A stretch of DNA of 40,781 nucleotides from a virus. Made by a program: the position numbers and the translations under genes. Under the pieces are notes generated by a model. It did not search any database. It was not told the origin of the DNA and was given only the letters and a program-made list of their open reading frames with translations. The stretch is taken from the UHGV virus genome UHGV-0177491; one strand, 5' to 3'. Shown piece by piece: positions 35,570 through 39,835 of the stretch (position 1 is the first letter of the stretch; the number at the start of each line of letters is the position of its first letter).

Positions 35570-35700
35570 CCTTAAACCTCCTTAATCGCATTCTGACGAG
35601 ATTTTGCATCTAGACACCCGATTACATACCTGCTGTGTGTTTATCTCGCTACAGGCTCATCTAGGCGCCTTAAAATCGATTTTTGTTGTTTTGGTTGTGT

Positions 35701-35731
35701 GCAAACAAAAGGCCTGCGATTACCAGCAGGC
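35701..35731 (-). terminator. Intrinsic terminator after the primase-helicase gene
   Basis: Minus-strand hairpin GCCTGC-tggtaatc-GCAGGC followed by TTTTGTTTG. Confidence 0.5.
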
Positions 35732-35761
35732 TGTTATTAGCTCAGTGATATAGATGGTCAT

Positions 35762-38668
35762 TTAATACTCCGTCACGTTTTCCTGTCGCCACGCCTCGTC
35801 ATATTCCGATTTCGGCATATTGGCGATGTAGCTATATGGCGATCCTGATTCAAGTTGCAGGAACTGGTGCGATTGCTCGTCAAGGAACAACGAGACACCA
35901 CCTTCCCAACCTTCGCCGTTACGTTGTTTTTCAAGCATCAAAACAGATGCCGGAGATGCCAGTAGCTGTTCGTCCTTCTCTGTCATCTTTTCACCACTCT
36001 GAACTCTCTGTAACGCTCTCTCGCGAGCCTTGTTACGCCAGATGATGAAAAGGTTGTCTGTCAGGTCTGTTATCGCGCCAGAGCCTTTTACGTCCATTTT
36101 CCCGGTTGGTTTTTCTTCGCTGTCTCCTTTTCGCGAGTGAGTAACGAGAATGACGTGGGAGTTTGTTTTGTTTTTGAAGTCGCAAATCGAGTCAACAAAC
36201 GCCTTCTGCCCGTTATAGTCATCGTCACCTATGCCGCATTTCATCAGGCTGTCGATGATGAATAACTGGATGCCGTATCGGCGGCGAGCGTAGTCGAATA
36301 TTTCGATCAGCCTGTCGGCTTTCGCCGTTCCGGTCAGGCCAAACACCCAAAGTCTTTCGTCATAAAATTTAAATGCAGAGTCAATTTCCAGCACTGGCGG
36401 CATCTTGCAGCACGTCGCCTGACGGGTAAGGCGCTTAAGGAGAATACCAGGCTTCAGCTCAAGTGACGCGATGCACGTCTTCACACCCTGACGCATTGCC
36501 TCAAGTGCCATATGCCCGACAACCTCGGTGTTATGCGTCGCCACATATCCCCTGGTTACATACAGGTGGCGAGGGTGATCGACCATAATACACAAGCATT
36601 CTGCATTGCCTATTTTTTCAACATTCCTGACGAATACCCCACAGCCCTCGAATCGATGCGCAGTTAATCTGCCATTGAGTCGTGGTGAACGGATGGCATC
36701 CCTGATTTCTCTTGTCAGTCTGATTCTTGCCTCGTATGAATCCATCCCATGCCGCTTATCGCCCTTGTATGTGTATGTCACGCCAGTTTTAACTCGCGTC
36801 CGGCATGACCCGCCGAGTGAGTTAACCAGTTGAACAACCCCATTGAGCAGTTCTTCACTTGCTGAGGAAAAAACAAGCGTTCCATCCTTCTCGACATACC
36901 CATCCGTTTCAAGCAGACCACACAGCATGCCTATACGCGTTGATTTATTTGCAGAAAAAAACACACGAGGGATGAATTTGTTTTTTGCTGTGCACCCCAT
37001 TAGTCCATAACCTCGCAGGGTCTCCATGAGTGGATTTACCTGACCACGCGCCGTTGATATCAGCCAGTCCTTACCATCTCCAGAGAAGTTGTAATCAGGC
37101 AGTTCAGCCTTCATACGCTCGATCATGTATGGCTCGACGTTTGAAAACTTCACGCTCCCATTGCTAAGACTACCATCCCCGAGAAGGGAGCCGATAACCC
37201 ATGCTAATGGCTCTGAGTGGTCGCCAAAGTCACCAGTTATTTCAGGAATCCTAACGCCATTTTTGTGCCTCTTCGTTTCACTCAACCGTTTCAGCTCGAA
37301 GGTGTCTATCACGCGGCGCTTCTCGCCTTTCGTGAATCCACGACTAGTGACCTCCCATAGGTGATCGCCTGCGCAATCAACATAACGACCATCTTCAAAT
37401 GTGACTCGGTAAACATCTCTAACACCCTGCGGGAATATCCCGGTGACAGTTGACGGATTGCCGTCAACTGACGCCACCTGATCGCCAATTTTTACATCCC
37501 CGTGAGTAGTCCATTCACCATTAGCGAGCAGAATTGGTTCATCAAGTGGACAGGCTTTTCCGTGACCGTTCACACCATTGACCAGCGTCAACTCGGCCTC
37601 ACGGAACTGGAATTTATCTGCCAGAGATTCCCACGGTGGATTAAACAGATACTGCTGCTTGCCGTAGAAAGCGTTGATAGTGTCCTGGTAAAACTCTCGC
37701 GCGCTGTAGAGTTCTTCAGGATCGAAGTAGGATGCCGTGCCGATGTACTGCCAGATTTCATCCTCGGTAACACCGTTCATCAGGCATTCGTTGATGTCTT
37801 TGTACGGCAGAGTAACAAGACGGCAACGATGTTCACCGAGTCGGCTTGCGATTTCCCTTGCGGCTTCACGACCAACATCATCAACGTCCATCGAGATGAA
37901 TATTTCCTCAAACCTGTCGAGGTTGTGATACTCAAACTCAATCCACTGTTGCTTAGCGCCTTTCCCGCCACCAAACGGCACGGATAACGCCGAGATGCCG
38001 TATTGCGCATAGCTCATACAATCAATTTCGCCTTCGCAAAGTACAACCGCCCTCACGCCAGCGTCCAGAGCCTGCCATCCGAACAGACAAGGTTCGCAAT
38101 CACCTTCTGCCATAATGACTTTCTTCCCGTCCGGGCGCTCAGTGCTGATTCGCTTGACCTGCAACAACTCACCATCGCGTTTGTACGGAAGCACCAGTGC
38201 ATCAAGTTCTCGTTCTCCATCCCACACCTTGCCGCTGACAACCTCGTAGCGCTTTACGACTTCTGGCGATATGCCACGCGATTGCAGGTACTCAAGATGG
38301 GATTCTGTTCTGGTAACGTAGCGGGCGATTTTCTTGCGGTCAGGTCTGGAGAATTTCTTCTCACGTTTGGCATCGAAATGGTGATCGTCATCCTTGATTC
38401 CGAGAAATGCTTTCGCTTCCTGCATAGCCTGATGCAGGTTAATTCCACGACATGCCATCCACAAATCAAGCATGTCACCGCCGTCTCCCTCAGCGAAATC
38501 AGCCCATTTTTTCTTGCCGCTAAGGTTGACCTTAAGGCTGTTTCCCTTGTCACCGTTGACGTTACCGGCAACCCACTCATGCCCCTCTTTCTTGCCGTTT
38601 GGCAACAGGTGCGGAGCCACCCTGTCAACCTGCGCCCAAAGCAGGTCGCTGAGTTCACTTGGCCTCAT
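35762..38668 (-). CDS. Primase-helicase (Toprim primase domain plus DnaB/SF4-like helicase domain) carrying an intein
   Basis: Toprim motif VVLCEGEIDCMSY; helicase motifs GVNGHGK (Walker A), LFIIDSL, VTHSRK, KGSGAITDLTDNLFIIWR. A 341-aa insertion interrupts the Walker A. Confidence 0.85.
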   Translation of the reverse strand: MRPSELSDLLWAQVDRVAPHLLPNGKKEGHEWVAGNVNGDKGNSLKVNLSGKKKWADFAEGDGGDMLDLWMACRGINLHQAMQEAKAFLGIKDDDHHFDAKREKKFSRPDRKKIARYVTRTESHLEYLQSRGISPEVVKRYEVVSGKVWDGERELDALVLPYKRDGELLQVKRISTERPDGKKVIMAEGDCEPCLFGWQALDAGVRAVVLCEGEIDCMSYAQYGISALSVPFGGGKGAKQQWIEFEYHNLDRFEEIFISMDVDDVGREAAREIASRLGEHRCRLVTLPYKDINECLMNGVTEDEIWQYIGTASYFDPEELYSAREFYQDTINAFYGKQQYLFNPPWESLADKFQFREAELTLVNGVNGHGKACPLDEPILLANGEWTTHGDVKIGDQVASVDGNPSTVTGIFPQGVRDVYRVTFEDGRYVDCAGDHLWEVTSRGFTKGEKRRVIDTFELKRLSETKRHKNGVRIPEITGDFGDHSEPLAWVIGSLLGDGSLSNGSVKFSNVEPYMIERMKAELPDYNFSGDGKDWLISTARGQVNPLMETLRGYGLMGCTAKNKFIPRVFFSANKSTRIGMLCGLLETDGYVEKDGTLVFSSASEELLNGVVQLVNSLGGSCRTRVKTGVTYTYKGDKRHGMDSYEARIRLTREIRDAIRSPRLNGRLTAHRFEGCGVFVRNVEKIGNAECLCIMVDHPRHLYVTRGYVATHNTEVVGHMALEAMRQGVKTCIASLELKPGILLKRLTRQATCCKMPPVLEIDSAFKFYDERLWVFGLTGTAKADRLIEIFDYARRRYGIQLFIIDSLMKCGIGDDDYNGQKAFVDSICDFKNKTNSHVILVTHSRKGDSEEKPTGKMDVKGSGAITDLTDNLFIIWRNKARERALQRVQSGEKMTEKDEQLLASPASVLMLEKQRNGEGWEGGVSLFLDEQSHQFLQLESGSPYSYIANMPKSEYDEAWRQENVTEY
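36530..37552 (-). mobile_element. Intein with LAGLIDADG homing-endonuclease domain inserted in the helicase P-loop
   Basis: Insertion begins with Cys after GVNGHGKA, contains LAWVIGSLLGDGS and RIGMLCGLLETDGYV (two LAGLIDADG-type motifs), ends VATHN followed by Thr. Residues about 373-713 of the host protein. Confidence 0.7.
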
Positions 38669-38775: not shown

Positions 38776-39546
38776 TCACCTGTCGAAAAACACGTAGCCA
38801 GTTTTCGATACGGTGATTGCGGATGATGGTTTGGATTGTGGTTGAATAGTTTCTGGCTTCTCGTCGTTCCAGCGTTGACCGTTCAGGTAGCTCGATGGTA
38901 ACAACCTGTCGAATCCGAACTGCTTACCACTCCTGCATGCGATGTCTTCTGCCAGCATCGTGGCAAACTCGCTTGCCGTACCCCTTGTAGTTTTACGCCA
39001 TTCCCTGAACTGTGTTCTGAATGCTGAAGCTGCGTTTTTCTTCCCGGCTTTCCGCATGCCTGCACACCAGAATATTTCCTCGAATGCCTTGTCGGTTTCT
39101 TCGTGACGGTCAGGAGTTTTTTCACACTCTGTTCGGACATGTTCGAACATAATGTTTTTAGGTTCATTGACTGGTTCAAAAGAGTGACTGGTTCTGGGTG
39201 CAGCTCCTGCACCACCCCCTAGTGAATCTCCTGCACCAGGGTGGTGAATCTCCTGCACTACCCCTAGTGAATCTCCTGCACCCCCAAGCCGAAGAATATA
39301 GATATTACTTGAGTTGCCTTTTTCACCTTTTCGGGTGACTTTTTTTAGCAAGCCAGCCTCACAAAGAGCCTCAATATGGTTAATCACGGAGCGTTTGCTA
39401 ATCTCGCACTGGTCAGCGATATGCTGATATGAAGGCCAGCATTCGCCATTGTCATTGGCGTTATCGGCAAGTTTAAGCAGAACCAGTTTTCTGAGCGGGT
39501 TTCCAACTTTGGCTCCCATTGCCTTCACCATCAGAATCATACTCAT
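38776..39546 (-). CDS. Iteron-binding replication initiator (lambda O-like)
   Basis: N-terminal wHTH-like region (KLVLLKLADNANDNGECWPSYQHIADQCEISKRSV); iteron repeats lie inside the coding sequence; position after cro and the cII remnant. Confidence 0.75.
   Translation of the reverse strand: MSMILMVKAMGAKVGNPLRKLVLLKLADNANDNGECWPSYQHIADQCEISKRSVINHIEALCEAGLLKKVTRKGEKGNSSNIYILRLGGAGDSLGVVQEIHHPGAGDSLGGGAGAAPRTSHSFEPVNEPKNIMFEHVRTECEKTPDRHEETDKAFEEIFWCAGMRKAGKKNAASAFRTQFREWRKTTRGTASEFATMLAEDIACRSGKQFGFDRLLPSSYLNGQRWNDEKPETIQPQSKPSSAITVSKTGYVFFDR
39204..39290. repeat. Intragenic iterons (about four degenerate 22-bp repeats) forming the replication origin
   Basis: Units CTCCTGCACC...GTGAATC repeated with variation inside the initiator gene; related to the perfect repeats at the window ends. 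Confidence 0.7.
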
Positions 39547-39580: not shown

Positions 39581-39835
39581 TTATTTAAGCATCAGGCGAG
39601 CAAACTTCGGCTGGTTACTTCCTGGCTCCAAATTCAAAACCCCAGTCTTTTCCAGTGCTAAAATGTGACCAATTACTGTCGATCTGCTAATATCGCACTG
39701 ATAAGCGAGATCTTGATATGAAAACCAGCATTCGCCATTGTCATTGGCGTTATCGGCAAGTTTAAGCAGAATCAGTTTTCTTCGCGGGTTCCCAACCTTA
39801 GTTCTCATTGCTTTCTCAATCAGAATCATACTCAT
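39581..39835 (-). CDS. Paralog of the initiator N-terminal domain (84 aa)
   Basis: MSMILIEKAMRTKVGNPRRKLILLKLADNANDNGECWFSYQDLAYQCDISRSTV is about 70 percent identical to the first about 60 aa of the downstream initiator. Confidence 0.55.
   Translation of the reverse strand: MSMILIEKAMRTKVGNPRRKLILLKLADNANDNGECWFSYQDLAYQCDISRSTVIGHILALEKTGVLNLEPGSNQPKFARLMLK

Follow-up and report, generated by a model that had tools for sequence, protein, structure and literature searches.

The DNA analysed here (hereafter the window) is the 40,781-nucleotide virus genome UHGV-0177491, which is P22-like (Lederbergvirus-like). An open reading frame on its minus strand, at positions 35762..38668, encodes a 968-aa precursor of 109.2 kDa; all features described below lie on this strand. 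The flanking genes encode an O-like HTH/DnaD_N protein, NinB and a PAPS-reductase-like protein, and the product is the 'P' replication protein of a lambdoid early-right operon. Public records label the gene variously as 'hypothetical', 'toprim domain-containing' or 'replication protein P'. A Pfam match to Toprim_2 covers aa 209-296 of the precursor, while a 626-aa intein-free homologue matches AAA_25 and DnaB_C and aligns with T7 gp4 (5ikn/6n7i) over aa 191-539 with an E value of about 3e-23; Twinkle is also aligned by the host protein. Judged by these matches, the product is a T7 gp4-like bifunctional enzyme, a Toprim primase fused to a RecA-fold DnaB-like helicase with the Walker A motif GxxxxGK[ST]. 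Scanning against Rfam gave no match in the ORF-free stretch that lies downstream of the primase-helicase gene.

The Walker A motif of this helicase is split by an in-frame insertion. Eleven alleles were compared in detail, five lacking the insertion and six bearing it. The insertion-free alleles are 98.8-99.3% identical in DNA, read GVNGHGK/TEVVGH (the slash marks the insertion site), a canonical Walker A motif, and are shorter by 1026 bp, or 342 codons, so that the gene measures 1881 nt without the element and 2907 nt with it. An in-frame insertion that is missing from near-identical alleles and falls inside Walker A has the character of an intein. Because the insertion-free alleles are 342 codons shorter and read as they do, we place the element at Ala372-Asn713 (36530..37555; 342 aa, 38.0 kDa). 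An earlier note, made from the window sequence alone, had described a 341-aa insertion following GVNGHGKA (aa 365-372) and starting at Cys373, which corresponds exactly to Cys373-Asn713 (36530..37552); this is one codon short, the difference in length being 1026 rather than 1023 bp. The same note had hesitated between Ala372 and Cys373 for the N-terminal junction, and of these Ala372 holds as intein residue 1, with Cys373 becoming residue 2. Similarly, it had proposed that excision would join GHGKA to TEVVGH, whereas the insertion-free alleles indicate that excision restores GHGKT and not GHGKAT. Its description of the other end, His-Asn (712-713) followed by Thr714, agrees with our assignment.

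The N-extein (37556..38668, aa 1-371) thus ends in the first part of Walker A, GVNGHGK (37556..37576), and the C-extein (35765..36529, aa 714-968) begins with Thr+1 (36527..36529). The alignment places the insertion after the P-loop Lys and before the next residue, Ser/Thr, with the 'nghgkTe' of the homologue matching GSGMGKS of T7 gp4. Thr714 is therefore the Walker A Thr of GxxxxGKT and, as predicted from sequence, also the splice nucleophile. The sequence around the insertion site in the intein-less mEp043/Sf101 allele is GGTGTGAACGGTCACGGAAAAACGGAGGTTGTCGGGCATATGG. The codon for Thr+1 is ACC in all six intein-bearing copies and ACG in the alleles without the intein.

The element has the layout of an intein, a HINT splicing domain interrupted by a LAGLIDADG endonuclease domain, and its residues carry the signature of class 3, which is defined by a WCT triplet and by an internal block F Cys that serves as first nucleophile (PMC5050341, PMC2807308). 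The top sequence matches in the PDB are to class 3 inteins, 6rix/6riy at E 5e-10 and 6bs8 at E 1e-7; PI-SceI is matched as well, and the Pfam family Hom_end_hint is matched with E 2e-5 at 25.2 bits, which is under its gathering score of 32.1 bits. Blocks A, B, F and G, with His65, His341-Asn342 and Thr+1, were all located by alignment to 6bs8, 6rix and Catera gp206. Block A (37550..37555) starts with a non-nucleophilic Ala1 and with Cys2, which is not a splice-junction residue; since the first intein residue is Ala372, this is not a standard Cys1 intein. Block B contains His65-Leu66-Trp67 (37355..37363), where His65 is B:10 and Trp67, the 'W' of WCT, is B:12, and these align one to one with His65 and Trp67 of Msm DnaBi1 (6bs8; residue roles from PMC6195587), with Catera gp206 aligning likewise. 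Cys322, at position 4 of block F (36590..36592), is the 'C' of the triplet and the predicted initiating nucleophile, and its column holds the catalytic Cys118 of Msm DnaBi1 and the block F Cys of Catera gp206. Block G (36530..36538) supplies Thr340 (G:5, the 'T' of WCT), His341 and the C-terminal cyclising Asn342. In sum Trp67/Cys322/Thr340 align to Trp67/Cys118/Thr137 of DnaBi1, and the triplet occupies the matching columns of further inteins, namely Catera gp206, a sister DnaB intein and a PhoH intein. Ala at position 1, the full triplet and Thr714 at +1 are as in class 3. Class 1 is not matched, position 1 being Ala and block B reading AGDH without the Thr at B:7 of class 1 inteins; DnaBi1 has Asp at this position, where the window intein has Ala. 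A class 2 (KlbA-type) reading, with Ala1 but no WCT triplet and with direct attack of the +1 residue on the N-terminal junction, was also considered and is ruled out by the triplet, which class 2 lacks by definition (PMC2807308). As a separate observation, Cys is an unusual residue to find at position 2; the sister inteins of this GK/T site begin AMAL... and AQPL..., without Cys there. Cys2 may contribute to splicing.

Both LAGLIDADG-type motifs of the earlier note were recovered within the endonuclease domain. Motif 1, LAWVIGSLLGDGS (37169..37207; aa 488-500, intein 117-129), contains ...SLLGDGS with the acidic Asp127, and motif 2, RIGMLCGLLETDGYV (36893..36937; aa 578-592, intein 207-221), contains ...GLLETDGYV with the acidic Asp218. 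In each, the acidic residue is followed by Gly, and two such motifs in one chain are typical of single-chain LAGLIDADG endonucleases. The motifs are conserved as WVIGALLGDGS and GLLETDGWVEK, respectively, in the sister intein, which is 49.6% identical. Pfam LAGLIDADG_3 is matched at intein 207-260 (E 3.5e-9, 37.2 bits against a cut-off of 22.5 bits), and the sequence alignment with PI-SceI spans intein 173-249. Together with the Hom_end_hint and PDB matches, this puts the signal far beyond chance. An AlphaFold2 model of the intein (pLDDT 81.5) gave PI-SceI 1ef0 as its top fold match (TM 0.73, E 1.4e-16). The alignment beneath this model is a shallow one of six sequences, because a homologous-protein search with the intein alone returned 5 matches, too few for a conservation survey. 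The modelled fold resembles the PI-SceI, Prp8, DnaB and gp41-1 inteins, suggesting a HINT domain, and its matches to PI-SceI, PI-PfuI, I-DmoI and I-Tsp061I, with I-DmoI matching the endonuclease core, suggest the duplicated alpha-beta-beta-alpha-beta-beta-alpha core of the endonuclease family. The insertion-free alleles, the sequence matches to inteins and PI-SceI, the predicted fold and the T7 gp4 alignment all support the proposal of the earlier note that Walker A is split by an intein with a LAGLIDADG homing endonuclease.

Taken as a whole, the locus is very probably explained by a class 3 intein in Walker A that splices from Cys322 and spreads by LAGLIDADG homing. The mechanism is modelled on class 3 inteins that have been characterised, namely MP-Be DnaB, Catera gp206 and Msm DnaBi1, which are only 25-30% identical to this element in the splicing domain. 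In the 109-kDa precursor the P-loop would be split, and for this reason ATP should not be bound properly. The block F Cys322 would then attack the Lys371-Ala372 peptide bond and take the N-extein as a thioester branch, which would be passed to Thr+1 (Thr714) by transesterification. Cyclisation of Asn342 would free the 38-kDa intein, and an O-to-N acyl shift would yield a 71-kDa helicase with an intact GVNGHGKT loop. If Ala1 is the first intein residue, the spliced junction would read LVNGVNGHGKTEVVGH. For its part, the LAGLIDADG domain is predicted to cut intein-less alleles across ...GGTCACGGAAAA/ACGGAGGTTGTCGGG..., and when two phages co-infect a cell, or a lysogen is superinfected, the cut allele would acquire the intein through repair templated by an intein-bearing copy. 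Homing of this kind would explain why the intein is present so patchily among near-identical helicase alleles.

The earlier note had regarded inteins in such phage replication genes as uncommon, which does not hold for this one: 9 of the 39 phage records that carry the gene have the intein, as do 79 of 296 complete E. coli genomes carrying it, where the ORF is intact, and it has been reported in phage 24B. Propagated phages with the intein include 24B, Min27 and phiKp_30. In every E. coli match listed the gene is entered as one toprim-domain protein, and the four E. coli chromosome records inspected each hold the full-length ORF intact and with no pseudogene flag. The six intein copies fall into two sequence variants, 97.7% identical to each other; the window intein belongs to the phiKp_30 or Shigella-type variant and has 4 nt differences from phiKp_30. 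Against the 24B variant, the first 15 intein codons form a divergent patch, and the sister DnaB intein, examined as a donor of this patch, showed 60-63% nucleotide identity to both variants, so that no donor was identified. Over the remaining codons (16-342) dN/dS relative to the 24B copy is 0.18, as under purifying selection. The intein was found in at least three extein haplotypes, several of them common to intein-less alleles, and the extein nearest to that of the window is in fact an intein-less allele, with 15 differences as compared to 19-23 for intein-bearing alleles. Third-position GC content (GC3) differs between the intein, at 0.474, and the two exteins, each at 0.580.

These patterns bear on whether the endonuclease still drives the spread of the element. 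An intein that splices although its endonuclease no longer cuts could have been kept by vertical descent together with general recombination of lambdoid replication modules, and for this the limited diversity of the six copies (two variants, 97.7% identical) is suggestive, as is the ACC codon at Thr+1 in every intein-bearing allele, as opposed to ACG elsewhere, which fits one ancestral invasion. We nevertheless consider this unlikely, since both LAGLIDADG motifs keep their acidic residues (G-D-G and T-D-G), a sister intein of only 49.6% identity has kept the endonuclease core, dN/dS is low across codons 16-342, and the predicted fold is that of a complete PI-SceI-like two-domain protein. The occurrence of the intein in several extein haplotypes shared with intein-less alleles points the same way, although such haplotype mixing could also have arisen without endonuclease-driven homing, by the usual recombination between lambdoid phages. 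Site-specific cleavage and homing have indirect support in the patchy distribution, the several extein haplotypes and the purifying selection.

A decaying or splicing-dead intein, leaving the helicase inactive and the phage dependent on host DnaB/DnaG or a helper for its replication, appears quite improbable. There are precedents for decay: prophages of Shigella flexneri hold truncated copies of the intein (P0001 along with several cluster members that are partial), PMC2807308 mentions partial ShP-Sfv-2a primase inteins, a frameshift splits the gene in the Min27 record, and Arthrobacter has an inactive, class-3-like pseudogene of an intein (PMC3196547). However, the Arthrobacter pseudogene is without the block F Cys that the window intein retains, and the window copy is a single unbroken 968-aa ORF with every catalytic residue in place. 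The low dN/dS and the intact full-length ORF in all four inspected E. coli chromosome records, as well as in the infective phages 24B and phiKp_30, likewise speak against decay. Given the low dN/dS, the intact ORF in 79 of 296 E. coli genomes and the presence in propagated phages, the intein is probably active.

A standard class 1 intein starting from Cys373, in which the first thioester would form on Cys373 and the helicase would retain Ala372 to give GHGKATEVV, is less credible still. Cys373 does adjoin the junction and is encoded in both intein variants, by TGT or TGC, and a WCT intein can begin with Cys, as Catera gp206 does after ...KSLA. Against class 1, the Ala is missing from all five intein-less alleles and the length gap is 342 codons; GKAT would shift the Mg-coordinating Walker A Thr, which aligns with GKS of T7 gp4; the sister inteins at the same GK/T site lack the Cys; and the WCT triplet is complete. 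Tori and Perler are said to have found in 2011 that WCT inteins starting with Ser or Cys still use the block F Cys. Three WCT inteins do start with one of these residues (PMC2807308). Finally, no point was found in favour of an ordinary accessory helicase domain, a reading that we discount almost entirely and that the earlier note had set as the alternative to its own, because alleles 98.8-99.3% identical in DNA lack the segment precisely and have Walker A intact, and because inteins and homing endonucleases are matched by its sequence as well as by its fold.

The class 3 intein favoured here is already known. The same intein was reported in 2012 in replication protein P of vB_EcoP_24B (Smith et al. 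2012, BMC Genomics 13:311; PMC3430580), with limits at residues 372-702 and no splicing class assigned, and Shigella prophage primases are represented in InBase by partial entries; the main text of PMC2807308 mentions partial primase inteins of ShP-Sfv-2a. Phage 24B, like Min27, Stx2a_F403/F451 and phiXuzhou21-Stx2a, shares with the window the 968-aa gene, the insertion site and the intein; the 24B and window copies are 97.7% identical in intein nucleotides and 98.8% identical in extein nucleotides, 7 of 342 intein amino acids differ, and the 24B copy resides in an Stx phage, as opposed to the P22-like genome of the window. Class 3 inteins at the P-loop GK/T of phage helicases are a described group, so this is no new kind of element, and the present analysis adds a one-residue boundary correction and the class 3 assignment, nothing more. 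For annotation, the gene encodes an intein-containing primase-helicase precursor with a mature product of 626 aa and intein limits at Ala372-Asn713.

Among the relatives, Msm DnaBi1 (PDB 6bs8, PMC6195587) and Mch DnaB1 (PDB 6rix, PMC7664689) also split the P-loop of a replicative helicase at the point where Lys is followed by Ser/Thr, and share Ala1, His65, Trp67, the block F Cys, Thr-His-Asn and a hydroxyl +1 residue that serves the ATPase. They differ in being mini-inteins without an endonuclease, in cellular DnaB rather than a phage gp4-like primase-helicase, and in having Ser instead of Thr at +1, and they are only about 25-30% identical to the window intein over the splicing blocks. The prototype MP-Be DnaB (PMC2807308) and Catera gp206 are class 3 inteins of mycobacteriophages with LAGLIDADG domains; like the window intein they are phage-borne, about 330-340 aa long and endonuclease-containing, with WCT and THN/T. 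Catera gp206 is 29.3% identical to the window intein over 98% of its length; the first residue is Cys1 in Catera gp206 and Pro1 in MP-Be DnaB, as opposed to Ala1 here, and host proteins and host phyla differ. A tblastn search with the window intein, aimed at the MP-Be DnaB intein, gave no match in positions 30000-52250 of the Bethlehem record, where the annotated DnaB-like gp62 is just 273 aa long and the intein in gp52 is a different one, and for this reason Catera gp206 and the solved DnaB inteins served as the class 3 references. The sister intein interrupts the DnaB helicase that 49 Stx2a-converting phages encode (for example Stx2_PV12-16, LC616041) and shares, with 49.6% identity over the full length, Ala1, HLW, CLCIMV, THN/T and the GK/T site (GMGK/A...HN/TEL). 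Its host is a true DnaB-family helicase (Pfam DnaB and DnaB_C, E 4e-71), unlike the Toprim/gp4-like host in the window, and it has Met rather than Cys at position 2. PI-SceI, the VMA1 intein, resembles the window intein in its two LAGLIDADG motifs in one chain and, according to the model, in its two-domain fold, but it is class 1 (Cys1, Cys+1), has an extra DNA-recognition region and shows about 15% sequence identity. The window element is thus a compact, apparently intact class 3 intein that keeps its endonuclease in a genetically tractable E. coli/Shigella phage, and related phages carry natural intein-less alleles and the 50%-identical sister intein in DnaB. This combination makes a convenient system for class 3 splicing, for homing between co-infecting lambdoid phages and for possible post-translational control of Stx-phage replication.

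Such control might be sensitive to redox state. We regard it as highly doubtful that the intein is a conditional switch on phage replication and not simply a selfish element. Oxidative stress also triggers Stx prophage induction. Were the switch real, helicase maturation, and hence DNA replication of the phage or Stx prophage, would be delayed under oxidative stress. In Msm DnaBi1 a disulfide between Cys48 and Cys118 gives a non-splicing precursor (PMC6195587). Oxidants could trap the present precursor in a similar disulfide-bonded, non-splicing state because the first nucleophile is an internal Cys322 and other cysteines are available, namely Cys320 two residues away, Cys2 at the N-terminal junction and Cys61 in block B.

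The primase-helicase is encoded by a single long ORF of 968 aa (35762..38668, minus strand). The gene for an O-like HTH/DnaD_N protein precedes it, and those for NinB and a PAPS-reductase-like product follow. This locus is a lambdoid early-right replication module, and outside it the window is similar to P22-like phages (Lederbergvirus) from E. coli and Shigella. A 626-aa homologue without the insertion, in which Pfam recognizes Toprim_2, AAA_25 and DnaB_C, aligns to Twinkle and, over aa 191-539, to the T7 gp4 primase-helicase (5ikn/6n7i, E about 3e-23). In the T7 alignment its 'vnghgkTe' pairs with the P-loop GSGMGKS, so that the insertion separates the invariant Lys from the Ser/Thr that coordinates Mg. 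This is the 'classic' P-loop intein site (PMC5050341), and DnaBi1, the class 3 intein of M. smegmatis (Msm) DnaB, occupies the same position (PMC6195587).

The landmarks reported in the earlier note were all located in the ORF: GVNGHGKA at aa 365-372, two LAGLIDADG-type strings at aa 488-500 and 578-592, and a terminal His712-Asn713 followed by Thr714. That note proposed a 341-aa insertion from Cys373, and window positions 36530..37552 indeed translate to exactly Cys373-Asn713; it left the junction open between Ala372 and Cys373. When the gene was compared with phage genomes by megablast, 39 records were recovered, of which nine contained the full 2907 nt while the other 30 matched in two pieces (65% of the query; gene of 1881 nt). 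We compared five insertion-free alleles, from mEp043, Sf101, E. coli 47-1826 and E. coli CS5L (98.6-99.2% identical to the window exteins) and from epsilon34 (87%). All five read GVNGHGK/TEVVGH, the slash marking the insertion point, and alleles with the insertion are 1026 nt (342 codons) longer than those without; the element is therefore Ala372-Asn713, at 36530..37555. By this sequence comparison residue 1 of the predicted intein is settled as Ala372 and residue 2 as Cys373, so the original extent was one codon short. Likewise, excision was expected to join GHGKA to TEVVGH, whereas the insertion-free alleles lack the Ala, and removal of Ala372-Asn713 restores a canonical Walker A, GVNGHGKT.

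The proposal of a LAGLIDADG intein splitting the helicase Walker A is supported by these alleles and also by Pfam and solved-intein matches. LAGLIDADG_3 scored 37.2 bits (E 3.5e-9; cut-off 22.5 bits), with weaker Hom_end_hint and Hom_end matches under their cut-offs, and NCBIfam models of DnaB, RecA, RNR and Tes proteins with inteins were matched within their intein segments. Judged from these profiles, the LAGLIDADG and intein signal is not a chance resemblance. In a search of solved-structure sequences PI-SceI matched the endonuclease part. The acidic residues of both motifs (Asp127 and Asp218, counting Ala372 as residue 1) are kept, and the LAGLIDADG core is also conserved in a 50%-identical sister intein from DnaB of Stx2a phages.

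The top solved-structure matches were class 3 inteins, namely M. chimaera DnaB1 (6rix/6riy, E 5e-10 and 2e-9) and Msm DnaBi1 (6bs8, E 1e-7). In the structure-database sequence alignment, His65, Trp67, Cys322 (second Cys of CLCIMVD) and Thr340-His341-Asn342 of the window intein, in the same numbering, correspond to His65, Trp67, the catalytic Cys118 and Thr137-His138-Asn139 of DnaBi1, whose roles have been described (PMC6195587). In our own alignment the HLW, C-I and THN/T columns are common to mycobacteriophage Catera gp206, the sister intein and an intein in a PhoH-like protein. Class 3 inteins lack a nucleophile at position 1, carry a Trp-Cys-Thr triplet (WCT) at B:12, F:4 and G:5, and have Ser/Thr at +1 (PMC2807308; PMC5050341), and all three features are present here. 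Class 1, which needs a position-1 nucleophile together with TxxH in block B, does not describe this intein; class 2 shares Ala1 and is rejected by the presence of WCT. The evidence thus supports the original observation of an intein, corrected by one codon, and refines it to a putative class 3 intein. The 342-aa element was modelled with AlphaFold2 from a six-sequence alignment (mean pLDDT 81.5, pTM 0.76), and the model resembled PI-SceI (TM 0.73, E 1.4e-16) as well as I-DmoI-type endonucleases and mini-inteins, among them 6bs8 and 6rix.

By reference to characterised class 3 inteins, splicing would start from a precursor with a split P-loop (predicted mass 109.2 kDa). Cys322 would attack the Lys371-Ala372 bond to form a block F thioester branch, transesterification would move the N-extein to Thr714, Asn342 cyclisation would free the intein (38.0 kDa), and an acyl shift would yield the helicase with GVNGHGKT (71.2 kDa). 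By analogy with Msm DnaBi1, splicing might also respond to redox state and thereby act as a switch on phage replication, but current evidence makes this reading unlikely.

Several findings suggest that the intein is active and mobile. No interruption of the ORF is seen in the window, phiKp_30, 24B (an infective laboratory phage; PMC3430580) or any E. coli chromosome inspected, each of which is annotated by RefSeq with one intact gene. The window and 24B inteins differ by 15 synonymous and 9 non-synonymous changes (dN/dS 0.18). Among complete E. coli genomes 296 have the gene and 79 of these have the intein; the identical 968-aa protein is present in public collections, and the 90% cluster to which it belongs groups 1494 proteins of E. 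coli, Shigella and Salmonella. Six intein-bearing alleles comprise at least three extein haplotypes, and the extein nearest to the window's belongs to an intein-free allele (15 differences, versus 19-23 for intein-bearing alleles). GC3 is 0.474 in the intein and 0.580 in both exteins. Distribution, haplotypes, dN/dS and GC3 are consistent with homing, in which the LAGLIDADG domain would cut the insertion point of intein-free alleles and the intein-bearing copy would serve as repair template, although ordinary recombination among lambdoid phages may account for the same facts. The Thr+1 codon is ACC in 6/6 intein-bearing and ACG in 5/5 intein-free alleles, which agrees with one initial invasion and later spread.

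InBase presumably lists full-length primase inteins from Shigella and Min27. Partial Shigella prophage primase inteins lacking the N-terminal nucleophile are InBase entries, such inteins occurring in helicase-type proteins, mostly at the P-loop (Tori et al. 2010, PMC2807308), and in 2012 the same intein was reported in replication protein P of Stx phage 24B, with limits given as residues 372-702 and with an orthologue noted in a Shigella flexneri prophage and Min27 (Smith et al., PMC3430580); the window intein was thus already known. The present analysis contributes the precise boundary, a class 3 assignment made explicitly for each residue, the frequencies and the existence of the sister intein in Stx-phage DnaB.

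The sister intein (GMGK/AMAL...VTHN/TEL) has 339 aa, 49.6% identity to the window intein and the GK/T site of a true DnaB-family helicase, and carries Ala1, HLW, CLCIMV and THN/T. It occurs, with no annotation at its position, in 49 Stx2a-converting phage records, for example at about 2501..3517 within locus 1832..4291 of Stx2_PV12-16 (LC616041.1). The PhoH-like intein (GTGK/AQPL...THN/T) is a related Ala1/WCT-type LAGLIDADG intein at the P-loop of a metagenomic 595-aa PhoH-like ATPase (PF02562). Together with the window intein, these point to one lineage at GK/T of at least three P-loop NTPase families.

Within the gene, window/phiKp_30-type and Stx-phage-type inteins differ at 24 nucleotides, of which 13-14 lie at 37511..37558 (minus strand; Lys371 codon and intein codons 1-15), a density of 13/45 nt in the 5′ patch against 11/981 nt elsewhere, with three amino-acid changes (D5N, N12D, E14T). 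The patch looks like a small recombination tract at the N-terminal junction; the sister intein, 60-63% identical there, was rejected as donor. In Min27 (EU311208.1, locus 1501..4409) two additional bases, absent from 24B and the window, split the gene into two annotated CDSs ('P' and 'ORF31 putative DNA primase'), through either a sequencing error or a genuine frameshift. Upstream, adjacent minus-strand ORFs at 39581..39835 and 38776..39546 each contain HTH_36, and the shorter product (84 aa) appears to be a small paralogue of the N-terminal part of the O-like/DnaD_N replication initiator (256 aa). The 192 bp that separate the helicase stop codon from ninB (35570..35761) have a GC-rich inverted repeat (gcctgc...gcaggc), no internal ORF of at least 50 aa and no match in an Rfam scan; Min27, 24B and epsilon34 have a 270-nt conserved hypothetical ORF at this position, sometimes plus ninA. 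In the E. coli 47-1826 prophage (NZ_CP184839.1, locus 1..218) a free-standing HNH endonuclease gene directly follows the intein-free allele in ninB's place, so that this replication module also harbours a selfish nuclease of a second type.
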